Notes: a model not told the origin generated them from the letters alone. Positions 4,307 through 54,085 are shown, counted from the stretch's first letter. The stretch: 64,000 nt of DNA from an uncultured Acidimicrobiia bacterium (GCA_963840175.1 CAWIXU010000004.1:9288-73287); one strand, 5' to 3'. Made by a program: numbers and translations.

Positions 4307-5477
4307 ATGCTACGGGCTCTCCTCCTTGTTCTTGAGCTGGCCCTCATCGCCCTCATCGCCTACAACCTGCGTTGTCGCTCTGCTTTGGATGGAGAAATCC
4401 CGTGACGAGGGCCAGCGGCAGTCGCGCAGCCACCGCTTCGTCATCGTGATCCCCGCTTACAACGAGGAGCGCGTCGTTGTCGCCCGGCCGGTCGCCGATC
4501 TGACACCACAACTAAGGGAAGGTGACGAGTTGTGGGTGCTCGCCGACCGATGCACCGACGACACGGCCGAGGTGGCGCAGGCGGCCGGAGCGCGCGTCGA
4601 CCGAACGCTCCGAGCGGGCCCGACGGAAAAGGCACCGGCACTGGCATGGTTCGTTGCCAAGCGACCGCTAGTTAGCGACGAGGCGCTCGTCGTGATCGAC
4701 GCCGACAATCGGGTCCCCGGCAAGCTCCTCGATCGGTTCGGCGCCGAACTGACCGACGGGCACTCGGTGCTGCAGGCCTACCTCGATGTGGCCAACCCCG
4801 ACGAGTCGGCGTTGGCGACCGCCTCGGCACTCTCGTATTGGGCTTCGAACCGCATGGTCCAGCTGGCGCGGGCCAACCTGGGTTGGACAGCCGATCTCGG
4901 CGGCACCGGCATGTGTCTGACTTCTCGAGGCGCTGAACGCACGCGGGCGGATTCGGGACATCGTTGGTCGAGGACCAGGACCTCGGAGTTCGCTGCTTTC
5001 TCGCCGGACACCCGGTCCGTTGGCTGCACGACGTTCGAATCGCCGATGAGAAACCTCCCACGGCCACCGTCGCTGTACGCCAACGGTCACGCTGGACAAG
5101 TGGACGTCGTCAGGTCGCTCGCCGTTGGTTGGAGAAGGTTGTCAGCCGAGCGACAGCCGGCGTCGCTTGATCTCGCGCTTGCGTCTGGTGCAACCTTCGC
5201 GGATGGGGATGGCGTTGCTCAGCGCCGCGCTGGCCGTGGCCTCGGCTCTCGGCGCGTCCTCTGCTTGCCCTGGCCGTTGTGGACGGCGGTTGCGCTGGTC
5301 CAGTTGCTCGCCCCGATCCCGTTTCTGATCCGCGACCGGGTGCCGTCTCGCTATCTGAGGAAATATCCGCTGCTGGCGTTGCTCCCACTGCTCAAGATTC
5401 CGGGCACGCTTCGTCGCAACCGGGAGTGGTATCACACGCCCCACGGGTTATCGGACGGTTATCCGACTGGGCCCTGA
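4307..5477 (+). CDS. Membrane glycosyltransferase family 2, frameshifted
   Basis: ATG 4307 gives TM segment MLRALLLVLELALIALIAYNL (frame differs from ORF 4326-5477). GT2 core FVIVIPAYNEE..VVIDADN. EDQDLGVR and QRSRWTSG (Q/RxxRW) motif in ORF 4964-5170. C-terminal TM helices. Confidence 0.7.
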
Positions 5478-6432
5478 CGGCCCGGGGCGAGCGGAGTAGC
5501 CCGCGAACCAAGCCCGACGCCGTAACTCAGGTGCATGATCGCGATTGACCCAATACCTCGAGCAGCCGTCCCCGACTCGCCGAGGGCGAGCACCACGATC
5601 CAGACGACGATCAGGAGAAGCAGCGGCCACCAAATCGTGGTGAGCAGGCCGAAGGCGACCGCGACGACCAGGCCGAGAACCAGGGCTAGCGGAGCCAGCG
5701 GTCGCCATGACGGGAATTCGCCGTTGAGATAGAGCATGTCGGCCTTGCCCAGTCCGTATCGGTAGAACTGGCGCCACAGAGCTGCCGGTGTGGACCGGGG
5801 TCGATAGGTCGTACGGATACTAGGATCGATGAGGATCCGTCCTCCACGTTGGCGAAGTCGATAGAAGAAGTCGGCATCCTCGGCGACACGAGACGGCAGT
5901 GATCTCATCCCGCCGTTGGCGAGGAAAGTCTGCCCGGGTCATGGTTCCGAGATAGACGGTGTCACCTTCGGTTGGCTCCTCGGTGTGATGAAACGGCGCT
6001 GGTCCGATTCCGAACTTTCGAGCGGTAGGCCGCCGCGACCGCCCGGCCAAAAGCGTTGTCGCCTTGCGGACGCATCGGACCGCCGACCGCTGCGGCTCCC
6101 GAAGCGAGGAGTGCTTGCACCGAACGAGTTACGTAAGTCAGGGCCGTAGGTGGTGTGAGCATCGGCTCGGATCAAGACGTCGGCTGCGGTGTTGTCCGCG
6201 GCGAGGTTGAGCGCGTGCGATTGCAGGCGTCGGGGATTGTCGACGACGCGCAACCTTGGTAGGCGAACCAGCCAGCGGGCAAGATGTTCGGGAGTGGCAT
6301 CGGTGGAACCGCCGTCGGCGACAACGAGTTCCCACTCCCCGGCGTAGTCCTGTTCCTCAATGCTCTGCGAGGCATTCGTCGATACTCCCGGCCTCGTTGA
6401 AGACCGGAAGCAACACAGCGACCGAGGGCAGT
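5459..6432 (-). CDS. Glycosyltransferase family 2 with C-terminal TM region, frameshifted
   Basis: PSVAVLLPVFNEAGSIDECL (rc of ~6370-6420), LRVVDNPRRLQSHALNLAADNTAADVLIRADAHTTY (ORF 5939-6253), AEDADFFYRLRQRGGRILIDPSIRTTYRPRST followed by TM helices (ORF 5459-5908). Start codon not resolved. Confidence 0.7.
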
Positions 6433-6450: not shown

Positions 6451-7802
6451 ATGACGGATTCGGCCTGGCGCCAGCGGTTGTTTCTGGCAATGGTGGCGGT
6501 GCTCCCGCTTCATACCGTTTATCTAAGCGCCTGGATTTCGTGGAAGCCGTTCATGGTCCTCCTGGCCGTCCTGGCCCTGTGGGACCTGGGCGACGGCATT
6601 CGGCTCCGGCAGTGGCCATGGCACAAGCGAATCACGCTCGCGTTCCTTCCCTTGATGGTGGCGGTTGCGATCGGGTTCCCAGGTCCTGAGCTATCGCGAA
6701 CGATTCATCCGGCTCGCCTTAGCGCTTGTCGTCGGGTTCGGGGTGCTGGCAGTTACCGAGCGACGACTGCGCGGCGTCAGGAATGGGAGCGCGCACCCTA
6801 CGGGTCATCTTCTGGTCCGCGGCCGCCATGGCGGTGACCGGCCTGATCTTCTCGGTGCTGCTTCTCGGCCTCGGGGGGGACGAAGGAATCGACTACCTCA
6901 CAGGGTCGCGCGGTTACGACCTTCCTCTCCTCGACAAAATTGGCAAGCCCGCCTATCTCTTGTCGGGTTTCCTCGCGCTTTCCAACTGGCATCAGGACCC
7001 GGGCTATGGAGCCGCTTGGGCGGTCCTCTGGGCGACATTGGCCCTCATCGCTTCCCTCCGCGGCCTCGGAACCAAAAGTCCTCTGATCGACGGAGCGATC
7101 ATCGGTGTTCTTTGGTCCGCAGTGGTGATGGGATTCTCCCGCACCGGGTGGGTGGCGCTGGCCGTGTCGTTGGTTCTCGTGGCCTGGAAGGTGACACGGC
7201 GAGGATTGGTCAAACGGATCGTCGCTGCAACCGTTGCCCTGATCTTGTCGATGGGGCTTCTCTTCGTCGCTGATGTCGAGAATGTCGGGGGGGAGCTGCC
7301 ACTTCAGTTCGCCTTTCGGCTCCGTCAGGGCTGGGACCTCCTGGCATCGATCACCGGGCTGTTCGAGTCATCCGCAGCCTTCGAGGACCAGTTCCAGCCA
7401 TCCGAGCAACGGGCCGACGTCTGGCCGGAGTACTGGCAACTGTTCCTCGACCACCCGGTCACCGGGGTGGGCTTCGGGGTTGGCTGGGAAACCAACTCCA
7501 TCGGCCAGGAACCGCACAACTTGTTTCTCGAGCTCGGAGCAGAAACCGGGATCATCGGTCTCGTCGCTTTTGCGTTGTTGTTGGGCTTGATCATTCGCGC
7601 CGGCAGCGGAGTTCTCGGGGCGGTGGCGCTGACCGTGTCGTTCTTGCCTGCGTTCACCCAGACAGTGCTCTTCGAACCAACCTGGTGGTTCGCCGCCGGC
7701 CTGTTCTTGGCCGCGGGAGGGAAGTTCGAGGATGCCGCGGAGATGCCTGTAGAGTCGTCTGACGAGTCAGGGGTTGTCACCCCAAAACAAGCTGCTGCCT
7801 AG
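6451..7802 (+). CDS. O-antigen ligase / polymerase-like (Wzy_C family) polytopic membrane protein, frameshifted near 6.7 kb
   Basis: About 10 hydrophobic segments. Characteristic loop GVGFGVGWETNSIGQEPHNLFLELGAETGIIGLVAFALLLG in ORF 6726-7802. N-terminal TM fragment in ORF 6451-6837. Confidence 0.65.
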
Positions 7803-11561: not shown

Positions 11562-12126
11562 GTTTTCTTCCCCCGGAGGGGGGAGTACCCGAGCGAAGCG
11601 AGGGGGTAGGGGGCGTTTTCTCGAGACCCAGGAGCTCAACCCTCTTCTATTCCCCTCGAAAAGGAACTACTCGTTCAACATGGCCCGACCCCGTCACACC
11701 GACCTCGCCGCGAACGAGAGCACGGGAGCTTCAGAAACGGGATGACCGTCTCAGAGGCGCGGGTGTGGCAGGTGATCCGCGGCGGACAATGCGGCGCCCG
11801 GTTCCGTCGGCAGGTTCCGATCGGACGGTGGATCGTCGACTTCGCCAGTCTGCAAGCCACGACTGGTGCTCGAAATCGATGACGAGTCACACGACTGGCG
11901 TGACGAAACGGAACGCATCGAGTACATCGAAGCGGAGGGTTTTCCGATTTTGCGGCTGACAAACAAATACGTCGCCGAGGACCTCGGCGCCGTTCAGCGA
12001 ACGGTGAGCTTGTGGGTGGCGGAGCTCAAGGCAGGGCGAAGGCCGGAGTAGGGATCGCGTCTGGAGAGAACGCCCCCCTCGTCTGCCTCCTTCGTCGGCA
12101 GACACTCCCCCCTCCGGGGGAGAAAC
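11562..12126 (+). mobile_element. DUF559-nuclease cassette copy 1, bounded by ~60-bp imperfect terminal inverted repeats
   Basis: Left terminus 11562-11622 GTTTTCTTCCCCCGGAGGGGGGAGTACCCGAGCGAAGCGAGGGGGTAGGGGGCGTTTTCTC. Right terminus 12064-12126 GAGAGAACGCCCCCCTCGTCTGCCTCCTTCGTCGGCAGACACTCCCCCCTCCGGGGGAGAAAC. Homologous end-to-end with 41552-42118. Degenerate solo termini at 11530-11550 and 12132-12153. Confidence 0.6.
11680..12051 (+). CDS. DUF559 (Vsr-like PD-(D/E)XK) endonuclease-domain protein, copy 1, two frame changes
   Basis: ATG 11680 MARPRHTDLAA.. Then MTVSEARVWQVIRGGQCGARFRRQVPIGRWIVDFAS.., then ..LEIDDESHDWRDETERIEYIEAEGFPILRLTNKYVAEDLGAVQRTVSLWVAELKAGRRPE (ORF 11866-12051). Paralog of the intact ORF 41675-42043. 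Confidence 0.75.
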
Positions 12127-12175
12127 GGGAGATCCCCTCCGGGGGGAGAAATTCAGGTCTGGGGATGAAACGGAT

Positions 12176-14752
12176 TTAGCCCGAGGGTGGCGCAGGGGCG
12201 GCGGCCTGGCCGACGGTGATGTACACCGGGCTCTTGTACGTCATCGCCGTTCCCGGCCCGGGGGTCTGAGCGAGAACGACATCGACCTGGGCGGGGTCGG
12301 TGACCGGCACGTAGGTCGCGTACACGTCGACCCAGGTCCCAGTTGAGTAGATGAATCGGTTGATCGTTCGGTAGGCCTCGCTGATCGGTAGGCCGATCAC
12401 ACTCGGCAACGCGCCGCCAGGGACCTGGCCGTTCGAGACATATATACGAATCGGAAGCCCGGCTTCGACTTCGGCTCCCGAACCGAGCGACTGGAAAACG
12501 ACGGTGCCCGCGGCCTGCAGCGAGGGAATCGGGGTTCACGTTGGGGATGAGTTTGGCCTCGGTCGCCAACGACACTGCCTCGGCTTCGGTCTTGCCGATG
12601 AGATAGGGAACGATGGTGGTCGGGGGCTTGAGGAACGGCTGGAGCTCCTCTTCGGTCAGGCGTGGAAAGTCGAGTGCTTCGACATCGGTCAGCACCATCC
12701 GCATGAACTCGGCCCAGATCGGAGCCGGGACCGAACCACCGAAGACCCGTTCGTAATACTCACCGTGGATGCGAACGTTGCGCAGGGGAACCTGATCTCG
12801 CTCGTACCCCACCCAGACCGCAGTCGTGTACTGCGGAACGAAACCGACGTACCAGGCGTCGCGATAGTCCTGGTGGGTGCCGGTCTTTCCACCCTGGGGC
12901 CGACCGATGGCGGCTCGCTCGGCCGTTCCTTCCGCGGTCGGCACTTCGAGCAGCGGGATTCGCGCTGCCTCGGCGATCGGCGCGGCGATCACCTGCTGCT
13001 GCTCGACCTGGTGCTGGTAGAGCACCTGGCCGTCCTCGTCGAGGATGCGGTCGATCAGATAGGGCTCGGCGTAGAGGCCGTTGGTGGCGAAGGACGAATA
13101 GGCGGAAGCCATCTCCAAGGTCGAAACTGCACCGGTCCCCAGCACGATCGAAGGCACCGGCTGGCAGCGGTGAGGTGATCCCCATTCGGTGCGCGGTCTC
13201 CACTACCTTCTCCGGCCCTACCTGCAAGGAGAGCTGGGCGTAGATCACATTGATCGATCGAGAGGTGGCTTCCTGGAGGGTGATGCGGCCGGCGCTGGCC
13301 CCGGCATTCGACACGGTCCACTTGTTGGGATCGGGCCCATCCGAGCAGATCGTCGGGCAGGTCAGGATGCGAGGGCTCGACCCGTCATATGTGTTGCCGA
13401 GCGTGATGCCGTTCTCGAGCGCCGCGACCAGACCAAACGGCTTGAACGCCGAACCGGGGTTACGTCGACCCTGGACGGCGAGGTCGAACTGGCTCTGTTC
13501 GAAGGGGAGCCCCGAAGCCATCACCTCGACCGCCCCGGTCTGGTTGTTGACCATCGTCAAAGCTCCAGTTGGTGAGCAAGAGTTGGCCTCGGCGTACGAG
13601 GTCAGGTTCTCGATCGGCTCGCTGGGAAAGATTCTCGTGCAGAGTTGCAGGTTCTCTTCGTAGGAATAGAAGGGGAGCCACTCGAGCAGCATCGCATTCG
13701 CCGCTTGCTGCAAATTGAGATCGATGGTCGTTTCGATGGTCAGGCCCCCGCCACCGACGCAGTTGACATCGTCGGATGGGCAACCGAAGACCGAGATGGC
13801 GCGCTCCTCCAGGGTCTGGCCGAGAAAATCGAACTCGTGACGCGAGAGGTCGGACAGCTGCCGCATCACCTCGGTGCGCACGTGTTCCGCCTCGCCGCGG
13901 AACTCGATGTGCTCGAGCACCCCAAGGGGTCTTGACTTGGCGATCTCCGCCTGAGATTCAGTGGTCCAGTCCTGTTCGAGCATGAGGTCGATGACGTCGT
14001 TGCGCCGATCGAGAACTACCTCTGGATTGTCGCCGAGGGTCGTAGAGCGAAGGGTTGCGGATGAGCACCGCGAGGGTGGCGGCCTGATCCAGGGTCAGCT
14101 CGGACATCTCGCGGTGGAAGAACTCACGGGCCGCGGTCTTGACCCCGTAGGCGCCGGCACCGAAGTAGACCGAGTTCATGTAGAACTCGAGGATCTTGTC
14201 CTTCGAGTGGCGACGCTCGAGCTCGGCGGCGATAAACGCCTCTTTGATCTTCCGCTCGATCGTGACCTCGTCGCCGACGAAGACGTTTTTCACGACCTGC
14301 TGGGTGATGGTCGAACCGCCGCGGGTGTTGCCGCTGCGGAAGTTGTCGAGGGCAGCCGAGGCGATGGCCGGGAACGAGACGCCCTGATGGTCGTAGAAGC
14401 CTTTGTCCTCCGCCGCCAGGATCGCGTGTTGAAGGAGCAACGGCACCTCGTCGATCGGGGCCGGCTCGGAGTTGCGCCCGTCGTGGAGCTCGCCGATGAT
14501 TTCTCCGCTTGCCCATATCCGCGACACCCGTGACAGGTCGGGGAGGGTCAGAGTCAACGTCTCGACTTCAGGGACGTACTCGGCTCTTACCTTGTCGATG
14601 GCGGCATAGGCGGAGTTGGCGCCGAGGAAAGTGAAGAGGCCAACCCAGGTGCTGCCCAGGAGCGCGATCGACAGCAGTCCCGCCAGAGCCGGGAACCAGC
14701 GGCCACGACGCTCGCGCGCTTCCAGTTGGTGGATGAGGGATCGATTGGCCAT
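12176..14752 (-). CDS. ponA: Class A penicillin-binding protein (PBP1A: transglycosylase + transpeptidase + 2 PASTA-like repeats), frameshifted
   Basis: GT51 motifs AILAAEDKGFYDHQGV and RGGSTITQQVVKN. Transpeptidase motifs GSAFKPF (SxxK), VSNAG (SxN) and GGKTGTHQD (KTG). C-terminal VPYLIGKTEAEAVSLATEAKL and MPSVIGLPISEAYRTI. ORFs 13958-14752, 12760-13983, 12153-13157, 12176-12409. Confidence 0.85.
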
Positions 14753-14826
14753 AAATCAACCGGAGCCAAAGTCGAATGGATAGTCCCCGGTAGCATCAAA
14801 GGTTACCTCTCGACGTCAGGTATTCC

Positions 14827-16377
14827 TTGCGCACTCCCAGCGGAATCGAAATCGAGGTTGTCTACGACCAACCCGCCGATCCCGACAAAATCGGCAGTCC
14901 GGGTGAGTATCCGTTCACCCGCGGCCCTCATCCCACGATGTATCGCGGACGGCTCTGGACGATGCGTCAGTACGCCGGCTACGGCACCGCCGACGCCACC
15001 AATCGCCGGTTTCGTGAGCTCCTCGCCGCCGGGCAGACCGGCCTATCGACTGCCTTCGACCTGCCGACGCAGATGGGACTCGACAGCGACCACCCGTTGG
15101 CCGAGGGAGAGGTCGGCAAGGTCGGAGTGGCGATCGACACCCTCGACGACATGCGCCGTCTCTTTCGGGAGATCCCTCTCTCCGAGGTGTCCACCTCGAT
15201 GACGATCAACGCCACGGCTCCGATCCTGCTCCTGCTCTATCAGCTGGTGGCGGAGGAGCAAGGCGTCGATGGCAAGGAAATCCGGGGCACCGTGCAGAAC
15301 GACATCCTCAAGGAGTACGTCGCCCGCGGCACCTACATCTACCCGCCGGGGCCGTCGATGCGGATCGTCACCGACGTCTTCTCGTACGCGGCCAAGGAGC
15401 TCCCGGCCTTCAACCCGATTTCGATCTCCGGCTATCACATCCGCGAAGCCGGCTCCACCGCCGCCCAGGAACTCGCGTTCACGATCGCCCATGGCCTCGC
15501 CTACGTGGATGCCGCCCTGAAAGCCGGCCTCGACATCGACGACTTTGCTCCCCGGCTCTCATTCTTCTGGAACAGCCACAACCTCTTCTTCGAGGAGGTA
15601 GCCAAGTTCCGTGCAGCCCGCCGATTGTGGGCCGACCTGATGCGGAATCGCTTCGGAGCCAAAGACGAGCGGTCGTGGGCGATGCGGTTCCACACCCAGA
15701 CCGCCGGTTCGACTCTGACCGCGCAGCAGACCGGAAACAACGTGGTGCGCACGACCGTCCAGGCCATGGCCGCCATCCTCGGAGGGACGCAATCGCTGCA
15801 CACCAACTCTTTCGACGAGGCCGTTGGACTGCCGACCGACGAATCGGCCCGTCTCGCCTTGCGGACCCAGCAGGTACTCGCCCACGAATCCGGCCTCGCG
15901 GATGACAGTCGATCCGCTGGCCGGCTCCTACTTCGTCGAGGAGCTCACCAACCAGCTCGAAGCCTCGGCCCGCTCACTGCTCGACGCAGATCGAAAGGAT
16001 GGGGGGCGCGGTGGCGGCAATCGAGAGCGGGGTGGACGCAACGTCAGATCGAAGAGGCGGCCTACGAAGAGGCCCGTCGCCAGGAGTCAGGCGAATCGAT
16101 CGTGCTCGGGGTGAACCGATATGTAGTCGGCGATGAGGCTGAGATTCCGGCGTTGAGAATCGACCCTGAGCTGGAGCGCGAGCAAAAGGCGCGCCTCGGC
16201 CAATGGAAGGCAGAGCGCTCGGCAACTGAAGTCGAATCCGCCCTCGACGCCGTCACCATCGCAGCCGGAGACGGGACCAATTTGCTTTATCCCATGAAGG
16301 AAGCGCTTGTCGCCGGTGCAACCTTGGGCGAGTGTTCCGAGGCGATGCGGGCCGTGTTCGGGAGCCACCGACCGTGA
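14827..16377 (+). CDS. Methylmalonyl-CoA mutase-family catalytic subunit (no B12-binding domain in this ORF); contains a hidden out-of-frame segment
   Basis: PGEYPFTRGPHPTMYRGRLWTMRQYAGYGTA, TGLSTAFDLPTQMG, NDILKEYVARGTYIYPP, ISISGYHIREAG. The conserved VDPLAGSYFVEELTNQLEASA lies in another frame (ORF 15824-16114) between ~15.90 and ~16.03 kb. Confidence 0.85.
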   Translation: MRTPSGIEIEVVYDQPADPDKIGSPGEYPFTRGPHPTMYRGRLWTMRQYAGYGTADATNRRFRELLAAGQTGLSTAFDLPTQMGLDSDHPLAEGEVGKVGVAIDTLDDMRRLFREIPLSEVSTSMTINATAPILLLLYQLVAEEQGVDGKEIRGTVQNDILKEYVARGTYIYPPGPSMRIVTDVFSYAAKELPAFNPISISGYHIREAGSTAAQELAFTIAHGLAYVDAALKAGLDIDDFAPRLSFFWNSHNLFFEEVAKFRAARRLWADLMRNRFGAKDERSWAMRFHTQTAGSTLTAQQTGNNVVRTTVQAMAAILGGTQSLHTNSFDEAVGLPTDESARLALRTQQVLAHESGLADDSRSAGRLLLRRGAHQPARSLGPLTARRRSKGWGARWRQSRAGWTQRQIEEAAYEEARRQESGESIVLGVNRYVVGDEAEIPALRIDPELEREQKARLGQWKAERSATEVESALDAVTIAAGDGTNLLYPMKEALVAGATLGECSEAMRAVFGSHRP

Positions 16378-17744
16378 CCACCGACCCCAAGCGAACCCGC
16401 TTTCTGATTATCGGCGCCGGCCCGGCCGGCACCGCCGCCGCCACCAACGCGGCCGCGCTAGGCGCAAAGGTCACTCTGGTCGAGGACCAGATCGTCGGTG
16501 GCGCGGCCCATCTTTGGGATTGCATTCCCTCCAAGACCATGATCGCCACCGCCGTGCGGATCGACTCGATGCGCAACGCCCCCCGGCTCGGGGTGACCGC
16601 CGCGCCCGGGCAGCGTCGACAGCGCCCAACTAGCCGAGCGAATCTCCATCATCTCCGGCGACATCAACCGCAGCTGGGTCGACCTCCTCAGCAGCCAGGC
16701 GGTCGAGATCATCAACGGGAAGGCCCGGCTGACCGGTCCAATCAGGCGATCGTCGAGGGAGATGACGGCGAACAGCACCGATCGAGCTTTGACGTCTGCC
16801 TGCTCTCGACCGGCTCGGCTCCCGCGTGTCCCGGCCTGGGCAGTCATCGACGGAGAACGAATCCTGACGACTCGCGACGCCTACGACCTCGAGCGAGGTG
16901 CCCGAACAGTTGATCGTGATCGGTTCGGGGGTCACCGGAGTCGAGTTCGTGCACATCTTCGAGTCGCTCGGTTCGGACGTCACCCTGGTGGTCAGCCGTC
17001 AGCAGATCCTTCCCCACCGCGATCCCGAGGTCGCAGCGGTGCTGGAAGAGAACTTCCTCGAAAGCGGGAGTGCGTCTGGTCATCGGCGCTCGCGCGATCG
17101 GGATTGATCGAACCGAAGACGGAGTCAGGGTTCGCTGCGACGACGGGCGGGTGGTCGAAGGCACCCACGCCTTGCTGGCGATCGGCTCGGTCCCGAACAC
17201 CGACTGATCTCGGACTGGGCGAGCTCGGCATCAAGGAGAGCGGCGGTTTCATCCAGGTCGACGAGCATCAGCGGACCTCGGTTCCCCACATCTATGCCGC
17301 AGGAGACTGCACCGGCCAGTTGCTGCTTTCCTCGGTGGCTGCAGTGCAGGGCCGGAAGATCGCCCGTCACGCGATGGGCTTGCCGGTCACACCGATCGAC
17401 TACTCCAAGGTGAGCCAGGCGATTTTCACTGAGCCCGAGATCGCCTCGGTCGGCCTTGAGGAGGCCGAGCTGGCCGCGGGAGGTCGCAAGGTGCGCACAA
17501 CCAAAGTGCCCTTTGCCGCCAACGCTCGGGCGGTGCTGCAAGGAAATCCCCGCGGCTTCGTCAAAGTCATGTCGGATCCCGCCACCGGAGTCGTCCTGGG
17601 CGGGAGCATCGTCGGCCACCGCGCCTCGGAGCTGATCGGGATCATGGCCCTCGCGGTCAAAGCGCGGGTCACGGTCAACGTCCTCGTCGACACCCTGATG
17701 GTGCACCCCTCCTCTCGGAAGCGATCAGCGAAGCAGCGGAGTGA
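16374..17744 (+). CDS. lpdA: LpdA-like flavoprotein (NAD(P)H-quinone / pyridine-nucleotide-disulfide oxidoreductase family), frameshifted
   Basis: GTG 16374 overlaps the mutase stop (GTGA). FLIIGAGPAGTAAATNAAALGAKVTLVE..GGAAHLWDCIPSK. Second Rossmann LIVIGSGVTGVEFVHIF (ORF 16898-17107). IYAAGDCTG. The restored C-terminus MVHPSLSEAISEAAE* ends at TGA 17742-17744. Confidence 0.75.
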
Positions 17745-17772
17745 GACGTCAGATCAGACGTCAGACATCAGA
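17743..17772. repeat. Left arm of split CAGACATCAGA-type hairpin element
   Basis: GAGACGTCAGATCAGACGTCAGACATCAGA. Near-identical to the left arm of the intact hairpin at 45427-45459 and complementary to 18622-18654. Confidence 0.8.
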
Positions 17773-18656
17773 ATGTCGTTGTAGCCAACGTTCGTGAACT
17801 GCCGACACACGGTTCCAGAGCGCATCTACGGCGCTCGGAGGTCCGTCGGGGCGAATGGCGAAGACATCTGCCAAGGCGGCGAACCAGTCGCCCGGATTAT
17901 CCAGCGTGGTTGAAGTCGACTCGTGCTCTCGACGTCGGGTGAGGACGCATCCCCGGAGAATGTCGGTCCCGTTCTCGAGTCGAAGCTGGGCGGTGACGAC
18001 TCCGGCAAAGCTCGATTCGGGGGACGTCGACAGGTGCTTGTGCCGTTCGCCGACACGCGTCCATCTCCACCTGGCCTGTCCGAAAGCTCATGCCCGAGAA
18101 GGAGCCGGTGGAATCGTGGGTGAAGTGCCAATCGCCAACCCCATCATCGGTCTCCTCGAAGCGAAAGGTCATTGGGTTCTGGGCATAAGTGCCCGAGATC
18201 ATTGGAAGCGGGTCGTATAGCCCGTCGCCAAGTCCCGCGTCCACCCACCAATCTCCATTCGGGTTCTCAGCCGTTGGGAGGTCATGGGCAACAAGCACCA
18301 GGTGATTCGACAACCACTTGACGTCGGGACCCTCGGGTCCATGTACGCCGCCGATGTGGCGGGTCACGTGATAGCCCAGCGAACCCAACACGAGGGATAA
18401 GGCTCCGTTCATCTGATAGCAGTAGCCGCCGCGGCTGTGGTTGGCGATTCGGTCCAGCGAGGCGGTCGGGTCGATGCTCCAGTTCTCGGACATATGAATC
18501 CACACGGATTCGTAAGGCACCCGTTCGACCCAAGCCCGATGGAGCCGGCTGCAGTGCCTCCGCGGAGGGAGGCTCCACCTCGACCCCGATGCGTCCTAGC
18601 GCCCGAACGACGTCCGGCTCTATCTGATGTCTGAAATCTGATGTCTGATGTCTCAC
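17761..18656 (-). CDS. Arylamine N-acetyltransferase (NAT family), two frame changes; both termini lie inside the inverted-repeat arms
   Basis: RGGYCYQMNGALSLVLGSLGY (catalytic Cys motif) in ORF 17897-18520. N-terminus ..VVRALGRIGVEVEPPSAEALQ then RLHRAWVERVPYESVWIHM. C-terminus in a third frame: ERHKHLSTSPESSFAGVVTAQLRLENGTDILRGCVL..ALWNRVSAVHERWLQRHSDV*. The only in-frame start candidate is GTG 18656-18654, overlapping the upstream TGA. Confidence 0.75.
18622..18654. repeat. Right arm of split CAGACATCAGA-type hairpin element
   Basis: ATCTGATGTCTGAAATCTGATGTCTGATGTCTC. Near-identical to 45470-45502, the right arm of the intact hairpin. Confidence 0.8.
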
Positions 18657-20154
18657 TGGTAGCTCACGTATACCGGTACGGGGTCGAGGGCTAGCACCTC
18701 CGCTGGAGTGGCTCCTCCCCGAGGGGTGTCTTCGTCGTAGAAGTTCTTCCAGCCCCAGAGGAAATTGTCGCCGTTTGCGGTTAGCGCGTCCCACGTGTCG
18801 TATTTGGTGCCGAGCGGTCCCTGTCCGTCCATCTGGATTACAGTCGCCAGCTCAGGATGAGTGACGATCTGGTCGCGGTTCTCGATCATGTCGAGACGGA
18901 ACTGATGGAGCAGGAAGAACTTCTGCGGGCAGCTTGTTCTCGCGGACGAGAGCGGCGAGCCACTCGGAAACCTGGTTGACCTCGGCGGCGTCGACCGATC
19001 CGATTTGGCGGAGATGGACCTGGTCGGGTTCCAGCCGCCACTCCGGGTCGAGGGCGAGACCGACGTGAGGCAAGCCGAGAAATTCTTCGTACGGCCTTGG
19101 CCTGGGTGAGGAAATCGGTGCGACCTGGTTGCAGATCGAGGATCACGTACACATCGTTGGCGGCGGCAACCTCGATCCACGGTCGGATGACGTCGAGGCT
19201 CATCTCTTCGGAGTAGTTGTTGTCGTCGCCCGGGAAGGCGGACGCGACGGTGGCGATGATTTCGAAGCCCAAGACGACTGGAGTCCCGTCGGCGTCATAG
19301 CCGGCGGCGATCTCAGCCGCCCTCGCGACGGCTTCCTCGGGACCCTGCTCGCCGAGGACCCCAAGCGCCGACGTGGTCGGGTTGCCATAGAGCGCCACCA
19401 ACCTTCGACCCGGGAACAGCTTGAGCCCGCCACCGGGGAGCTCTGGGGCGTTGACGAGCGCGCCGCTTTGCCATTCGATGAGCTCGGGATCAAAGCCCCC
19501 GGCGACGAACATCTCCTGCGCGGGGGTCGATCTCACCGACTCGAGCAACGCCTGGTCGCCGAGCATGTTGTGTGGATCGGCAAGGACGACCCGGTCACCC
19601 CGTAAGCCGGCGAGAGCGGTCACGGGAGCGACGAGGTCGGACCTGGTGGCGTCCGCCAGCCAGATATTTTCGCCTTCTGTGTCATCGGTTGGGTTTCTGC
19701 CGGCGGCCGCGATGGCTTCCTGTAGAGCGATCGAGTTGCTGGGAATTCCGGCCACCCCACTAGGGAGGGCGCCCCCAACGACCGAGATCGAGTGTGGTGC
19801 GAGGCGGCGTAGCTCATCTACGACCTCGGCGTCAGTCCCTGCGACCAAAAGCGGTGCCTTGATGGAGGCGGCGTAAGCGCCTGCTGCCTCGAGTTCCGGC
19901 GTCGAACCGCTCGCCACCACGACGTGGTCGGCGCACGCCAGGGTGGCCTTGGAGAGGGCGATCGAGAGCTCGACGGGGTCGGTGCTGGTGAAGATCTGCT
20001 GATCGGGTGCGATTCGACATTCCCGGGCCGTGGTTGTGGTTATCGCCTCAGTCGTGGTCGTCGCCGACGGTATTGACGAAGGCGTGCTCGTGCCACCGGC
20101 CGAAGTGCATGAAGCCAACACCAGCCAGACAATCACGGCCGATTTTTGGTTCAA
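18653..20154 (-). CDS. Secreted lipoprotein of unknown function (conserved block; glycoside-hydrolase-like fold only suspected), frameshifted
   Basis: TTG 20154 overlaps the accA stop (TTGA). [21 protein letters not shown] is lipobox-like, followed by a Thr-rich linker. Conserved C-terminal blocks: LVALYGNP..GFEIIATVASAFPGDDNNYS..VYVILDLQPGRTDFL, GLALDPEWRL, LLHQF..MDGQG. ORFs 18886-20343, 18852-19073, 18653-19180. Confidence 0.4.
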
Positions 20155-21909
20155 CGGATGACGGCCAGCACGGCTCCCAGCGAGACGGTGTCGCCGGCTT
20201 GCACCCGGAGGTCGACGACCTCGCCGGCGCTCGGGGAGCGCACCTCGTTCTCCATCTTCATCGCCTCGAGCACGCAGATCGGCTGGTTCGGCTTCGACCT
20301 TGTCGCCTGCCTTCACATGCACTTTGACGATCGTGCCCTGCATCGGCGCGCGTGACGACTCCGTCGTTGCGCACCCGACGCGGCGGGCCGGTCGAGCTTC
20401 GGCCGAGCTCTCCGCGTCATCCCGGGTCCAGTCGCGGGACCAGCGTCAGGTGACCAGTAGGTGACCGCAAACCGCCGTCCCACCGATCTCGACGGTCATG
20501 TCGCGGCGGGCGAGCTCCTCGTCCTCGGGCAGCGTTGGCTGCGACGAGCGGCGTGGCGTCGGGGAACTTGACCTGATCCTCGAGCCAGCGGGTGTAGTGA
20601 CGGCCTTCGAGAAAGTCGGGATGATCGAGCACAATGAGATGCGCAGGGATGGTTGTCGCCACCCCGGTGATCAGAAATTCCTCGAGGGCGCGACGGCCGC
20701 GTCGGATGGCTGGTCGCGATCGCTACCCCACACGACCAGCTTGGCCATCAGGTTGTCGTAGTACTGGCTCACCCTGGTGGTCGGGCTGGATCCAACCATC
20801 GACGCGCACGCCCGGCCCGGCCGGTTCGCGGTAGTCGGCGACCTGACCTGGCGTCGGCAGAAAGCCGCGCAGCGGATCCTCGGCGTTGATCCGGAATTCG
20901 ATGGCGTGGCCCCGCGGGCGTGACCGAGTCGAAGTCGAGCTTCTCGCCCTGCGGCGATCCGCAGCTGCCACTCCACGAGGTCGAGACCGGTGACCATCTC
21001 GGTGACCGTGTGTTCGACCTGGAGGCGGGTGTTCATCTCGAGGAAGTAGAACTCGCCCGATTCGGGATCGAAGAGAAACTCGACGGTGCCGGCGTTGACG
21101 TATCCGCACGAGCGCCCGGCGGCCAGGGCGGCTTCGCCCAAGAGCGTTGCGCTGTTCGGCGGTCATACCCGGGGACGGGGTTTCTTCGATCAGCTTCTGG
21201 TGTCGTCGTTGCACGGTGCAGTCGCGCTCGCCGAGGAAGACACCGTGGCCGGCTGGGTCGAAGAGGATCTGCGCTTCGACGTGACGCGGGCGCGGCAGGT
21301 ACTTCTCGACGTAGACCTCGGGGTTTCCGAAGTAGGCGTCGGCCTCGCGCCTGGCCCCGTCGAACGCCGCCACCGATCTCGCTCGCGCTGTTGACCACGC
21401 GCATTCCTTTGCCGCCGCCGCCGTGGGCGGCCTTGATCGCGATCGGATAGCCGAACTCTTCGGCGAGGGCGGCGACCGTCTCCACCGATTCGGCCGGTTC
21501 GGAGGTCCCTGGAACCGTCGGCAATCGCCGCCTCGGCGGCATGTCGCCGCGAGGTGATCTTGTCGCCCATCGCCTCGATGGCCGCGGGAGGAGGGCCGAC
21601 CCAGGTGATGCCGGCCCTGGTGACCGCCTCGGCGAACCCGGCGTTCTCGGCGAGAAAGCCGTAGCCGGGATGGATCGCATCGGCCCGAGCGGCCGCGGCG
21701 ACCTGGAGGATCTTTTGGGCGTTCAGATAGGACTCGGCCGCGGGCGCCGGTCCCACGTTCCAGGACTCGTCGGCCAACTGCACGTGCAGCGAGTCGCGAT
21801 CGAGGTCCGAATAGATGGCAATCGTGTGGATGCCCATCTCCTGGGCGGTGCGGATGACCCGCACCGCGATCTCTCCCCGGTTGGCGATGAGGAGGCGGGA
21901 AATGGTCAC
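20151..21909 (-). CDS. accA: Acetyl/propionyl-CoA carboxylase alpha subunit (biotin carboxylase + BCCP), heavily frameshifted
   Basis: GTG 21909 [105 protein letters not shown]. Biotinyl domain [19 protein letters not shown]..(MKM region out of frame). Confidence 0.85.
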
Positions 21910-23462
21910 TAGAGCGGCATGTTCCCATGCTTTTTCTGGGGGAGGTGCTCGCGTTTGGTGCGCAGCATCTCTAGCGCCCGGATGAGCTTGCCGCGGGTCT
22001 CGCGTGGCTCGATCACCTCATCGACCAGACCGAGTTCGGCTGCCCGATAGGGATTGTTGAATTGCTCCTCATAGTCGTGGATCAGCTCGGTTCGCTTTTC
22101 CTGGGCGATCGGTGGCCTCGGCGAGCTCGCGTCGGAAGATCACGTTGACCGCCCCCTGCGCACCCATCACGGCGATCTCGGCCGACGGCCAGGCAAAGAC
22201 CATGTCAGCACGAATGCCGCGGGCATTCATAACGAGGTAGGCCCCTCCGTAGGCCTTGCGCGTGATCACCGTCACCCGCGGCACGGTCGCTTCGCAGTAG
22301 GCGTAGAGGAGCTTGGCGCCGTGGCGAATGATGCCTCCGTGCTCCTGGCCGACGCCGGGAAGGAACCCGGGCACGTCGACGAAGGTGATCGAGAGGAATG
22401 TTGAACGAGTCGCAGAACCGCACGAAACGGGCCCCTTTCTCCGACGCCTCGATGTCGAGCGTCCCCGCCAGATGAGACGGCTGGTTGGCGACGATCCCGA
22501 CCGCCTGGCCATCGAGCCGTCCAAAACCGACGATGAGGTTGCGAGCCCAATGCTCGTGGACCTGAAAGAACTCGCCGTCGTCGACGACCAATTCGATCAG
22601 CGTGACCATGTCGTAGGGCTGGTTGGGCGAGTCGGGGATGATCGTGTCGAGGACATCTTCGAGCCGGTCGCGACTGTCGGTAGGGGGGAAGTAGGGCGGC
22701 ATCTCGAGGTTGTTCTGGGGGAAGAAGCTGAGCATGTAGCGCACCGCGTCGAGAGCGGTGCTTCCGTTCGGGAACACGAAGTGGGTCACGCCGGAAATGC
22801 TGGCGTGGGTGAAGGCACCACCGAGTTCTTCCATCGCTACCTCTTCGCCGGTGACGGCTTTGATGACATCGGGACCGGTGATGAACATGTGCGACGACCC
22901 GTCGACCTGGATGACGAAGTCCGTCATGGCCGGGGAGTACACGGCCCCGCCCGCGCACGGCCCCATGATCACCGAGATCTGCGGGATCACCCCCGAAGCG
23001 CGCACGTTGCGCTCGAAGATGCGGCCGTACCCGTCGAGGGAAGCAGACCCCCTCCTGAATGCGGGCGCCGCCGGAGTCCTTGAGACCGATGATCGGCGCT
23101 CCAACCTCCATCGCCAGATCCATCAGCTTGCAGATCTTGTCGGCCACCGCCCGGCCGAGTGATCCGCCGAAAACCGTGAAGTCCTCCGCGTAGACAAAGA
23201 CGGTCCGTCCGTCGATCGTGCCGTAGCCGGTGACCACCGCGTCCCCCGGGGGGCGCTTTTGCTCGATGCCGAACCCCGATGGACTGGTGACGGACAAACA
23301 TGTCCATCTCCTGAAAGCTGCCCTTGTCGAGCAGGTGGTCGATCCGCTCTCGAGCGGTGAGCTTGCCCTGCTCGTGCTGGCGGTCGACCGCTCGCCGGCT
23401 CCCGGCGTGATGGGCCTCATCTCGAGTTTGCGTAGTTGCTCGATGCGGGCTTCGGTGCCCAC
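21910..23462 (-). CDS. pccB: Acyl-CoA carboxylase beta (carboxyltransferase) subunit, frameshifted
   Basis: [141 protein letters not shown] at 21910-21912 abuts the accA GTG. Confidence 0.85.
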
Positions 23463-23475
23463 CAGCCTCCTCCGT

Positions 23476-24192
23476 ATGCTCTCCAGGGCCGGGATGTCTA
23501 CACCCTATTCGTCCCACGTTTACGAGGAAGTCACCTCGACCCAGGACGTTGCCCGTTCGCTCGGGATCGACAGGTCCGATCCTGGTGATTGCCGCCCGCC
23601 AGACCGAGGGTCGCGGACGGTCGGGCGCGAGCTGGGAAACGGCTCCGCGAGCCCTGGCCGCGAGCCTCCACTTCGCGCCGCGGAGCCTCGGGTGGCCCGC
23701 TGACCGTTGGACGCTGATTCCGCTGGCGACCGGCATCGCCGTCGCACGCTCTTTGCAGCTCAAATCTGAAGTGGCCCAACGATCTCCTGGTCGCGCCGGA
23801 AGAGAAGGTCGGAGGCATCCTGGTCGAGGCGACCGGTCAGACGATGACGATCGGCGTCGGGGTCAATCTCTGGTGGCCGGACCCTCCAGCCGAACGGGCT
23901 GCGACTATGGACCGACGATCCCGGTGCCTGAGGCTCTCACCGCGCCTCGGCGAGACCGTTGGCGAGGCGGTCTGGGAAGAGCTCGGTAACGGCGCCGAGG
24001 CTGGAGCTACGACGACTACTGCCGGGCCTGCTTGACACTCGGCAGCGAAATCACTTGGGGGCGAAAACCGAACGCGGCAACCGATCGCTTCGCGATCGAC
24101 CGCACGGATGGGTCACTCGTAGTCGAGGAATCCGCGTGCGCCGGCGCAAATCCGCAACTGCCGGCGAGTGTGACGCCTCAACCCGTCCGTTA
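23476..24192 (+). CDS. birA: Biotin--[acetyl-CoA-carboxylase] ligase, frameshifted; 3' end uncertain
   Basis: [50 protein letters not shown] (after a frame change) followed by [14 protein letters not shown]. Divergent from pccB-accA. Confidence 0.7.
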
Positions 24193-44765: not shown

Positions 44766-45418
44766 AGAATCCGACTGTTCTTGTTGTCGACGACGCGCCT
44801 ATTTTTCAGGCGGGTTTGGCGGCTGCCCTCAAAGTGGAGGGCTTCGACGTCGTGGCGATTGCCTCCGATGCCCTCACTGCAATTGCTGAAGCCCGCCGTC
44901 ACCGCCCGGCTCTGGTTGTTCTGGACGTGTTGATGCCGGGGATCTCGGGTCTCGATGTCGTTGACAAGATCACCGACGCCTCGCCGGGAACCAAGGTTGT
45001 GCTGCTGACGTCGAGCGACTCCGAGGAGGACTTGCTCACGGCGATCAAGGCAGGAGCTTCCGGCTACATCATCAAAGACACGCCATTCCCCAAGCTGGTG
45101 GCGGCGATGAATGAAGTCGTCAAAGGGGGAGCCGTAGTGTCGCCCAAGCTTGCGGCCCGGCTCTTTGATGTGGTGGCCCATCTGCTGCGCAATCGGGATC
45201 TCAACGCCACCCGCCGGCCCTCTCTCACCGGTCGCGAGGTGGAGATCCTGCAATGGATCGCCGATGGTCGAACCTCGCGCGAGATAGGCGAACAGCTCTA
45301 CATCTCCGAGAACACCGTCAAGAACCACGTCCGCAACATCTTGGACAAGCTGGGGATGCAGTCCCGGCACGAAGCGGTCCGCTACGCCGAACACGCGGGA
45401 CTTCTGAATCGCCGATAG
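44762..45418 (+). CDS. NarL/FixJ (LuxR-type) response regulator (intact), no kinase nearby
   Basis: REC domain VLVVDDAPIFQAGL..VVLDVLMPGISG..VVLLTSS. HTH LTGREVEILQWIADGRTSREIGEQLYISENTVKNHVRNIL. GTG overlaps the hpf stop (GTGA). Confidence 0.85.
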   Translation: MKNPTVLVVDDAPIFQAGLAAALKVEGFDVVAIASDALTAIAEARRHRPALVVLDVLMPGISGLDVVDKITDASPGTKVVLLTSSDSEEDLLTAIKAGASGYIIKDTPFPKLVAAMNEVVKGGAVVSPKLAARLFDVVAHLLRNRDLNATRRPSLTGREVEILQWIADGRTSREIGEQLYISENTVKNHVRNILDKLGMQSRHEAVRYAEHAGLLNRR

Positions 45419-45426
45419 GCGATTCA

Positions 45427-45504
45427 GAGACGTCAGACATCAGACGTCAGACATCAGACTGGGATTCCATCTGAAGTCTGAAATCTGATGTCTGATGTCT
45501 TCTC
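45427..45504. repeat. Intact long imperfect hairpin built from GTCAGACATCAGAC units (terminator-like, between the RR gene and secA)
   Basis: Left arm 45435-45459 pairs with right arm 45476-45500 (about 23 of 25 positions, counting G-T). The 16-nt loop contains TGGGATTCC. Starts 9 nt after TAG 45416-45418. Confidence 0.8.
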
Positions 45505-53670: not shown

Positions 53671-53673
53671 TCG

Positions 53674-54023
53674 TGGAGGCGGCGGGAATCGGACCCGCGT
53701 CCCATGAGTCGTCAGCGCCGGCATCTCCGAGCGCAGCCGTCGGCGAGCTTGTCGGCAAGAAGGACCCCAACGGCGGGCTTCCCACTCGCTTATCCGGAGT
53801 TGATCTTTGCCCTCCGGTCCCGGATCCCGGAGGACGCATCCTGCATTGCGACGCCCGATTCCGGCGAGGCAGGCGCCCACCGGGCGGACGGGCTGCGTTA
53901 TTTAGGCAGCCAGTGCGAAGTTGTCTTCGGCACTTGTGTTTGTTTCCGGCTCTTTAACGAGGTTCCGGAGACCTCGGCTCGCTTCCGACGCATCAACACT
54001 CATGGTCGAAACCATTTCGCCCC
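53674..54023 (-). ncRNA. ssrA: tmRNA (SsrA), about 350 nt
   Basis: 5' GGGGGCGAAATGGTTTCGACC (rc of 54003-54023). 3' GGACGCGGGTCCGATTCCCGCCGCCTCCA (rc of 53674-53702). Internal tag ORF ..GCC GAA GAC AAC TTC GCA CTG GCT GCC TAA ATAA = (A)EDNFALAA*. Confidence 0.9.
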
Positions 54024-54085
54024 CATGGGCTGATCGCAATTCTACGGGTATTCAGAGAATCCGTGTTCGCCTATCTTCTGCGGAA

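Follow-up and report, generated by a model that had tools for sequence, protein, structure and literature searches.

An arylamine N-acetyltransferase gene between the separated arms of a heptamer hairpin at a convergent gene junction in Acidimicrobiia

We analysed a stretch of 64,000 nt from an uncultured Acidimicrobiia bacterium (GCA_963840175.1, CAWIXU010000004.1:9288-73287), hereafter the window; its positions are numbered over the whole 64 kb. At a junction of two convergent genes, one encoding a lipoprotein-like protein and the other an lpdA-like flavoprotein disulfide oxidoreductase, the two arms of a hairpin built of AGACRTC heptamers (arms A and B) are separated by a gene for arylamine N-acetyltransferase (NAT). 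An intact hairpin of the same kind, hairpin C, lies elsewhere in the window. In the scenario that we favour, with slightly better than even confidence, NAT would have lodged long ago in a bidirectional hairpin, with translation coupled to the upstream stop codon and vertical inheritance thereafter. The junction was compared in eight related genomes: the window, L120-L122 and L205-L208.

The NAT gene and the hairpin arms in the window

The window contains one intact and one split copy of a palindromic extragenic repeat. The 14-mer GTCAGACATCAGAC, allowing at most two mismatches, has nine matches in 64 kb, confined to positions 17753-17773, 18622-18656 and 45432-45496. The chance expectation is 0.43 matches on average, and none of 100 dinucleotide-preserving shuffles reached nine. 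Period-7 arrays were reported by Tandem Repeats Finder only at arm A, arm B and hairpin C, with 4.4-4.6 copies in each of the four arms.

A reading made earlier from the sequence alone (below, the sequence-only reading) had described a hairpin directly after a stop codon at 45.4 kb and the same two arms 850 nt apart near 18 kb. Both descriptions held. Hairpin C is predicted to fold with -50 kcal/mol on the plus strand (z = -8.2) and -49.6 kcal/mol on the minus strand (z = -6.5). It starts 8 nt past the TAG (45416-45418) of a LuxR-type response-regulator gene and ends 27 nt ahead of secA (start at 45529), both genes being assigned by Pfam. The distal arm of either strand contains TGA in three frames.

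Arm A differs from the left arm of hairpin C by a 2-nt deletion only, and arm B (ATCTGATGTCTGAAATCTGATGTCTGATGTCTC) differs from the right arm by one mismatch and a 2-nt indel, the irregular unit GTCTGAAATCTGATG being present in both. The segments 17753-17772 and 18623-18642 are 90% complementary over 20 nt. The inverted repeat extends outwards to AGTGAGAC and GTCTCACT at 17740-17753 and 18644-18657. Taken as terminal inverted repeats, the arms measure 20-33 nt and are 85-94% complementary. No target-site duplication was found: the flanks GGAG and CTGG outside TGAGAC...GTCTCA at arms A and B, and TTCA and ACCC outside GAGAC...TTCTC at hairpin C, contain no direct repeat.

Both arms are seated on stop codons. 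Arm B begins at the TGA of the lipoprotein gene (18655-18653), which is overlapped by the NAT start codon GTG (18656-18654) as GTGA; apart from this TGA, the minus strand of arm B is stop-free. Arm A had been said to start at the TGA of the lpdA-like gene. The position is correct, but the TGA terminates this gene only after a 1-nt deletion near 17712 is mended. On the minus strand arm A carries TGA in all three frames and provides the last three codons and the stop codon of NAT.

Table 1. Features of the split-hairpin locus and the intact hairpin in the window
Feature	Coordinates	Strand	Description
lpdA-like flavoprotein disulfide oxidoreductase gene	16401..17744	+	Pfam Pyr_redox_2, Pyr_redox_dim; stop TGA 17742-17744; converges on NAT; frame-shifted in the window
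Arm A, TGAGACGTCAGATCAGACGTCAGACATCAGA	17742..17772	+	Matches the left arm of hairpin C; first bases are the lpdA stop codon
NAT gene	17761..18656	-	PF00797; true length 894 nt (297 codons and stop); copy in the window has two 1-nt insertions
Arm B, minus-strand reading GTGAGACATCAGACATCAGATTTCAGACATCAGAT	18622..18656	-	Matches the right arm of hairpin C; encodes NAT residues 1-11 (VRHQTSDFRHQ)
Lipoprotein-like/secreted conserved gene	18653..20154	-	Final conserved gene of the accD-accA operon, immediately upstream of NAT; reading frame shifted in the window
Hairpin C, intact AGACRTC-heptamer hairpin	45427..45501		Arms ~33 nt, loop 9 nt; between response-regulator gene and secA

When its frame is corrected, NAT matches PF00797 with E = 5.1e-35 and 121.8 bits (cutoff 22.8) over profile positions 3-234 of 240. 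A protein search gave 1107 homologues, the best two with identities of 93% and 84%. NAT contains the motifs RGGYCYQ, NHLVLV and VDAGLGD, which are conserved in all aligned homologues; the residues that we take to be the Cys-His-Asp catalytic triad were assigned by inspection and general knowledge. The product of the lipoprotein-like gene matched no Pfam family. The proposal that the insert is exactly one NAT gene stood with respect to its family and its boundaries, which agree with those of 297-aa orthologues in L121 and of P0241, but the span of 896 nt is not a multiple of three.

The same reading had placed the start and the stop of NAT in one frame, and here it was wrong. The sequence in the window passes through three frames by two frame switches, and the GTG and the stop TGA (17763-17761) are out of frame with each other. 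Alignment with L120, L121 and L122 places two 1-nt insertions near 18551 and 18053. The stop had appeared to be in frame despite these indels because arm A holds TGA in every frame. The deposited record contains a broken NAT (P0051, a 198-aa fragment, 100% identical), whereas the 297-aa orthologues from L121 (an Illumina assembly; P0002) and P0241 are intact. They start with MRHQTSDFRHQ and end with SDV; these terminal codons of NAT are encoded by the repeat arms. In P0003 and P0243 the heptamer-derived ends are shorter and the peptide sequence is different, and P0245 is a further NAT of the arm type.

The other genes of the region are affected as well. Pieces of the lpdA-like gene found by tblastn lie in frames +3 and +1, and the deletion near 17712 costs it the last 10 codons (the orthologues end in SEAISEAAE and a stop codon). 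Compared with the relatives, frame switches occur in all six genes from accD to lpdA, including accA, the lipoprotein gene and NAT, and secA is also split (regions 12000-24000 and 45529-48124). These pervasive frame-shifting indels are most likely errors of the long-read assembly and not gene decay. Since the neighbouring genes are frame-shifted too, the indels in NAT are probably assembly errors, and any ORF-based (open reading frame) interpretation of the window requires frame correction.

Given the indels and the broken deposited record, one could suppose that the split arrangement, or NAT itself, comes from a misassembled long-read metagenome bin. We consider this extremely improbable, and for the arrangement it is effectively refuted. 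The order lipoprotein gene, arm B, NAT, arm A, lpdA is repeated with an intact ORF in the independent Illumina assembly L121, which also counts for the scenario of an old insertion into the hairpin. The same order is implied by P0241 on a 312-kb contig, and the gene order is found in L120 and L122.

The acc-lipoprotein operon ends with NAT, and the NTGA overlap of the lipoprotein stop with the NAT start is present in all four sequenced junctions. This suggests that NAT, including its 11 arm-encoded codons, may be translated through termination-reinitiation coupling.

The ends of the NAT mRNA had been proposed to pair as a panhandle of ~30 bp, and in silico such a structure does form: the predicted panhandle has ~33 bp and about -46 kcal/mol and encloses the ORF. 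For the arm duplex the predicted energies are -45.7 kcal/mol (window) and -49.7 (L121), the respective shuffle means being -9.6 and -13.4, and the minimum-energy fold of the 931-nt NAT-sense RNA includes the arm pairing with 46 pairs in the window and 43 in L121. One possibility, compatible with any origin of the arrangement, is that the arms are kept as a functional RNA module. Conceivable roles are a processing stem for RNase III by which the NAT segment is released or destroyed, concealment of the NAT start until ribosomes have completed the lipoprotein ORF, or 3'-end protection of both convergent transcripts. Indeed, the predicted duplex contains both the start codon of NAT and the stop codon of the lipoprotein gene, the heptamer periodicity is kept in the DNA although the encoded peptides differ (MRHQTSDFRHQ, MSDFRDQISDQ, MSDFRNRIDAN), and complementarity continues a few bases past the arms (GAGCCGG with CTGGCTC). 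However, the long-range pairing is missing from the predicted folds of L122 (4 pairs) and of L120, which lacks arm A (0 pairs), and both genomes retain an apparently functional NAT. Arm B is identical in 32 of 35 positions between the window and L121, the identity of the NAT core being 82.5%; three differences against about six expected are not a significant excess of conservation over the coding background, and selection on the arms is unproven. The two genomes with DNA of both arms show no clear compensatory pattern, the differences between arms A and B being uninformative as to covariation. Moreover, the reading frame by itself disfavours 7-nt slippage, and thus selection on NAT alone would also preserve the arms. 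As two NAT-bearing relatives lack the panhandle, its function is possible but unproven, and we regard a functional module as an unlikely reason for the persistence of the arms.

In both the window and L121 the predicted pairing passes beyond the arms into the coding sequence (in the window, 18606-18621 with 17790-17800). GAGCCGG near the N-terminus is paired there with YTGGCT in the conserved ERWL codons, which may be due to chance.

The lipoprotein/lpdA junction in related genomes

Six states of the junction were observed in the eight genomes: abutting stop codons, an intact hairpin made of another heptamer, other cargo between two other hairpins, and NAT in three settings, namely between split arms, with degenerate arms or with one of the arms replaced. 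The gene order accD-accA-lipoprotein-NAT converging on lpdA-mutase is common to L120, L121 and L122, and the synteny of the lipoprotein gene is kept in L120, L122 and L205-L208.

In L121 (NAT 84% identical) both arms are present, the ORF is intact, and its ATG overlaps the lipoprotein TGA. Arm A consists of three TCTGACG units followed by TCTGATGGTCTGTCT and reaches the TAG of lpdA; the numbers of units in the arms differ between L121 and the window.

In L120 (NAT 93% identical) arm B is kept with an ATGA overlap, and arm A is cut down to TGAGACGTCAG. In its place, about 270 nt (6832-7092) separate NAT from lpdA. P0241, which belongs to the same 90% cluster, keeps the complete arm-derived C-terminus, and thus the rearrangement in L120 is strain-specific. 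An element of ~190 nt with 23-nt inverted ends (GTTTCTCCCCCCGGAGGGGGGAG ... CTCCCCCCTCCGGGGGAGAAAC) is present in this interval of L120 and resembles a MITE (a transposable element of the miniature inverted-repeat kind).

In L122 (NAT 69% identical) the GTGA overlap and an N-terminal extension of the same length are retained, and the NAT stop is 6 nt from that of lpdA. No arm B can be recognised (identity 14 of 35 nt). Arm A is represented by about three degenerate units that align with the inner and outer units of arm A of L121, the outer TCTGTC-CTA being common to both. Hence arm A of L122 is a shortened homologue of that in L121, and arm A was present in the common ancestor of the NAT-bearing lineages. 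NAT at this junction without any arms had been named as the case that would speak against a split hairpin. What was found is intermediate: no arm B and a degenerate arm A in L122, most of arm A missing in L120, both arms in L121. Since L120 and L122 keep NAT, the arms are dispensable.

The remaining four genomes have no NAT at the junction. In L206 and L207 the lipoprotein and lpdA stops are 2 and 1 nt apart, respectively, with no hairpin and no scar. In L205 an unrelated hairpin occurs in two direct copies spaced 2112 nt apart, and these flank a 2.1-kb insert with an alpha/beta-hydrolase gene and a remnant of an amino-acid permease gene. These copies (5459-5516 and 7571-7633) contain a 50-nt hairpin GCGCATCAAACGCAACC...GGTTGCGTTTGATGCGC; the best-matched pair is formed by the outer arms of the two copies, as would be expected for integration into a hairpin.

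In the outgroup L208 a 73-nt hairpin of GCAGTAR heptamers reaches from the TAG of the lipoprotein gene precisely to the stop of lpdA (-42.9 kcal/mol, z = -5.4). TAG or TAA occurs there in all three frames on the arm adjoining each gene (5654-5732). Heptamer-periodic, stop-rich hairpins thus seem to be a recurring design rather than a single sequence family.

These observations bear on the idea that, without the insert, the two convergent genes would share one bidirectional hairpin. The stop-to-stop hairpin of L208 agrees with it, but its heptamer is different. Empty sites were likewise obtained in part, as NAT-less junctions of L206, L207 and L208, none of them with an intact AGACRTC hairpin. 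A search of metagenome contigs with the lipoprotein alignment gave 80 loci with 37-70% identity, none of them near NAT or lpdA, and added no empty sites. The distribution in the eight genomes supports the view that NAT is accessory at this junction.

A species tree was constructed from 1263 complete columns of five flanking proteins and rooted with L208. It has the form ((L205,(WIN,L120)),(L122,(L206,L207))), where WIN is the window, and L122, L206 and L207 are united with 97% bootstrap support. With L122 being sister to the NAT-less L206 and L207, a single gain requires two clean losses or replacements, or else lateral spread of NAT. In a neighbour-joining tree the NATs of the junction form one clade, and the identity between the window and L122 is 69% for NAT and 66-67% for the adjacent lipoprotein. 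Most simply read, NAT would have been acquired once, long ago, in the ancestor of the ingroup, with arm A already in place, and then cleanly lost in L206 and L207 and replaced in L205. Alternatively, the NAT-bearing allele spread laterally between lineages; the data are compatible with either course. Clean loss of a segment bounded by inverted repeats is mechanistically plausible, as palindromes stimulate deletion.

The hairpin family and possible mobility of the insert

A scan with AGACRTCAGACRTCAGA, using one genome per species, gave at least 119 loci, with both Illumina and long-read assemblies represented. Among the matches listed, to which the following observations refer, AGACRTC heptamers occur in several Acidimicrobiia and Gemmatimonadota assemblies, and other Acidimicrobiia assemblies have several copies per genome. 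An ORF of at least 100 codons ends no more than 10 nt from the outer edge in eight of the nine automatically delimited AGACRTC hairpins at high-GC loci of Acidimicrobiia and Gemmatimonadota. The first hairpin unit usually contains the stop codon (TAG followed by AC, or TGA followed by GAC). Two convergent ORFs end on opposite edges of a single hairpin in L004, L038, L044 and L111; in L094, hairpins follow genes that by visual inspection are tuf-like and rplK-like. Whichever strand is read, the first arm is free of stops other than that of the gene itself, and the second contains TGA in every frame.

We consider these hairpins a lineage-wide class of intergenic elements seated on stop codons. 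By their position and stability, they are probably factor-independent terminators or stabilisers of 3' ends that work in both directions. A literature search retrieved no paper containing the repeat strings and no description of the family.

The search for intact and split copies suggested by the sequence-only reading was successful in one respect, as intact hairpins were found in several genomes. A second split pair, with or without cargo, was not observed in about 25 high-GC hairpin loci. Two candidates were rejected: the apparent pair in L008, with arms 2.4 kb apart, consists of two separate complete hairpins, and L094 contains three separate hairpins. In the latter locus (5000-5100) one and the same GC-rich palindrome of 22 nt (CGCCGGGCTGGCGCCCGGCTGT) breaks the left arm of a hairpin at two points, both directly after CAGAT. 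The NAT segment of the window likewise starts directly after the CAGAT of arm B.

Heptamers of this type are not confined to Acidimicrobiia. In Gemmatimonadota (L001, L004, L038, L061, L081, L111) they form hairpins abutting stop codons. In Oscillospiraceae and Acutalibacteraceae (L036, L021, L060, L092, L099, L112) the arrays lie beside canonical terminators with a GC-rich stem and a T-run and form the inverted ends of an element of ~300 nt. These Firmicutes arrays are often situated at contig ends and intermixed with arrays of the heptamers CAGTGCA and GGAGCTT. Related heptamer arrays were found in many phyla. In L053 (6575-6680) an array of GGACGAC adjoins an AGACRTC-type half hairpin and an apparent 3' end of a tRNA gene.

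One alternative is that the arms grew in place. NAT would have been inserted, or would be ancestral, at a junction without a hairpin, each flanking gene later gaining a stop-anchored heptamer array by slippage or conversion, and the mutual inversion of the arrays would be merely a consequence of the genes converging. In bacteria, no class of longer simple repeats is commoner than heptanucleotide arrays, for which expansion by slippage is assumed (PMC4679880). Each arm faces its own gene in the same way (gene-TGA-GACRTCAGAC), as throughout the family. The short arm A and missing arm B of L122, the different unit numbers in the window and L121, and the different heptamer in L208, which indicates that such hairpins turn over in place, also fit this alternative. 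On the other hand, the agreement of the arms with hairpin C and with those of other genomes extends to irregular units, such as ATTTCAGA, which is common to arm B, the right arm of hairpin C and the rplK hairpin of L094. One-armed arrays in the inspected loci of Acidimicrobiia always have a degenerate local partner, two independent expansions would have to halt exactly at the NAT coding boundary, and arm A is ancestral to the NAT-bearing lineages. Independent growth of the arms is therefore unlikely in our view.

Another possibility is a hairpin-based mobile system, of which the arms would be the recombination sites or the terminal inverted repeats. NAT and its arms would then have entered an arm-less junction as a unit and could leave it precisely if a recombinase or transposase specific for the hairpin acted in trans; the empty form would be the short intact hairpin. 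The empty sites of L206 and L207 are scarless and hairpin-less with abutting stops, and the position of these genomes as sisters of the NAT-bearing L122 implies that DNA was excised or inserted cleanly where the arms end on the outside. The outermost TGAGAC...GTCTCA provides the stop codons of both neighbours. The cargo of L205 between two copies of another hairpin resembles the result of a Campbell-type integration. In L036 (Acutalibacteraceae, Firmicutes) AGACRTC arrays are the inverted ends of the ~300-nt element, and related arrays of Oscillospiraceae lie at contig ends. Finally, repetitive extragenic palindromic (REP) hairpins are known targets of insertion sequence (IS) elements (PMC1525189).

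However, no recombinase or transposase was found among the called neighbours in L120 and L205-L208, and no gene for a RAYT (Y1 transposase) among the annotated neighbours in the same genomes. There is no target-site duplication at arms A and B or at hairpin C, no other split pair in the listed loci, and no other cargo was seen inside AGACRTC arms. NAT genes at 65-67% identity in unrelated contexts have no arms, and all arm-bearing NATs whose flanking DNA was read are at the lipoprotein/lpdA junction; thus the arms belong to the junction and not to NAT. The divergence of NAT also follows that of the adjacent lipoprotein. A mobile cassette is improbable on this evidence, and the unrecognised cassette mechanism suggested by the sequence-only reading gained no support, although it retains a small probability; nothing indicates an active cassette system.

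Known types of mobile modules were considered as well, and two of them were rejected. An integron attC cassette is contradicted by the absence of a GTTRRRY core in the AGACRTC arms, by the housekeeping neighbours (accD, accA, lpdA, mutase) and by the absence of an integrase and of a cassette array. For a module of the Xer/dif type there are no core sites and no recombinase. A MITE or transposon would be consistent with the terminal inverted repeats, but no target-site duplication or transposase was seen, and no second locus among the arm-bearing NATs whose flanking DNA was read.

A broader version of this idea, which we consider quite improbable, is that the stop-anchored heptamer hairpins of Acidimicrobiia, and perhaps of Gemmatimonadota, are docking sites of a trans-acting recombination system that inserts and cleanly excises single promoter-less ORFs, the arms supplying an NTGA start and a three-frame stop. 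If so, the scarless empty sites, the cargo of L205 and the patchy distribution of NAT would be traces of repeated insertion and excision.

Origin of the arrangement and comparison with known repeats

Under the scenario of an old insertion, which we favour, a NAT coding segment would have come between the two arms of an AGACRTC hairpin at the convergent lipoprotein/lpdA junction in the ancestor of the clade. The arm beside the upstream gene, being stop-free on that strand, would have left the insert open to translation. The NTGA at the beginning of this arm, where GTG or ATG overlaps the lipoprotein stop, would permit termination-reinitiation coupling, and the far arm with its three-frame TGA would end translation whatever the frame. 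Deletions then probably trimmed the insert to a bare ORF with 11 repeat-encoded N-terminal codons and the repeat-encoded end, SDV and the stop codon. Vertical inheritance would have followed, with decay of an arm, replacement of an arm or loss of the whole insert in some lineages. As for the route of entry, we can only guess at breakage at the hairpin tip with capture by end-joining, or at another illegitimate event in the loop or next to it. Insertion into the loop of a terminator hairpin, as proposed originally, thus has comparative evidence on its side, but a direct intermediate was not found.

Several observations weigh against this scenario. Hairpin C has no U-rich tract 3' of its stem (the plus strand continues with CACCCCCGAUACC, the minus strand with GAAUCGCC), and therefore we infer a role in termination or 3'-end protection from position and stability. 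A simple consensus terminator scan reported nothing at arms A or B; the window-wide scan for inverted repeats with short loops told nothing about other terminator types. An AGACRTC hairpin without NAT was not found at this junction in any relative examined. Arm B cannot be recognised in L122, and this NAT-bearing genome groups with the NAT-less L206 and L207. The predicted pairing of the arms is lost in L120 and L122, and selection on the arms would be difficult to claim. Finally, as the frame of NAT in the window is broken, this copy may yet be a true pseudogene.

A close parallel is provided by IS elements (IS1397, ISKpn1, IS621, ISPpu9/10) that insert into palindromic units of REP sequences and bacterial interspersed mosaic elements (BIMEs), whose halves then flank the insert (PMC1525189). 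In both situations an intergenic palindromic repeat is split by inserted DNA, and repeat-rich intergenic sites mark strain-specific segments (PMC1525189). However, an IS element encodes the targeting transposase, whereas the NAT insert is nothing more than a metabolic ORF: it lacks a transposase and inverted repeats of its own, and its target is not duplicated.

Like bidirectional intrinsic terminators, the AGACRTC hairpins and the hairpin of L208 place one stable stem, equally stable on both strands, between converging stop codons (L004, L038, L044, L111, L208). Unlike them, the AGACRTC hairpins, as putative terminators, have no U/A-tract, consist of 7-nt units and start on the stop codon, and the copy at the NAT locus is interrupted by 850 nt.

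The TAACTGA repeats of Beggiatoaceae are intergenic heptanucleotide arrays with stops in three frames that may overlap gene ends by a few bases (PMC4679880). As in AGACRTC arrays, the unit length of 7 nt is not a multiple of three, and so a stop-containing unit blocks all frames. However, TAACTGA forms direct arrays mostly just upstream of start codons, whereas AGACRTC arrays are inverted, form a long hairpin on stop codons and contain stops only in the distal arm.

Cyanobacterial short tandemly repeated repetitive (STRR) sequences are also intergenic heptanucleotide tandem repeats. Mycobacterial interspersed repetitive units (MIRU) lie between operon genes with stop and start codons overlapping their ends, but these are direct repeats of 40-100 bp and are not split by a gene. 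Rickettsia palindromic elements (RPE) are palindromic repeats that insert into genes and are translated within the protein; there the repeat lies in a gene, and here a gene lies in the repeat. Long-range processing stems cleaved by RNase III bracket genes in rRNA operons. The complementary flanks of the ~0.9-kb NAT segment are similarly predicted to pair in a stem of ~30 bp, but the bracketed ORF has its start codon inside the predicted stem, and the stem is missing in L120 and L122.

The components are therefore of known kinds, namely intergenic palindromic or heptamer repeats and insertion into such repeats; most worth following are the hairpin family and the changeable junction. The family is distinguished by the anchor on a stop codon, the 7-nt period, the absence of a U-tract, a near arm that is open and a far arm that is closed in three frames, and the sharing of one hairpin by convergent genes. 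It is a candidate for the poorly understood terminators of high-GC uncultured lineages. The case of NAT suggests how such a hairpin could make a coding fragment with neither start nor stop an expressed last gene of an operon, and the single convergent junction, with its six states in eight related genomes, offers a small natural case of genes being gained and lost at terminators. Should the arms prove to be recombination sites, they would define a cassette system of a new type, which the data at hand do not demonstrate.

An Rfam scan of the window gave no family at arms A or B. The sole family above threshold was tmRNA (RF00023, 157.7 bits), with the gene at 53671-54024 on the minus strand.

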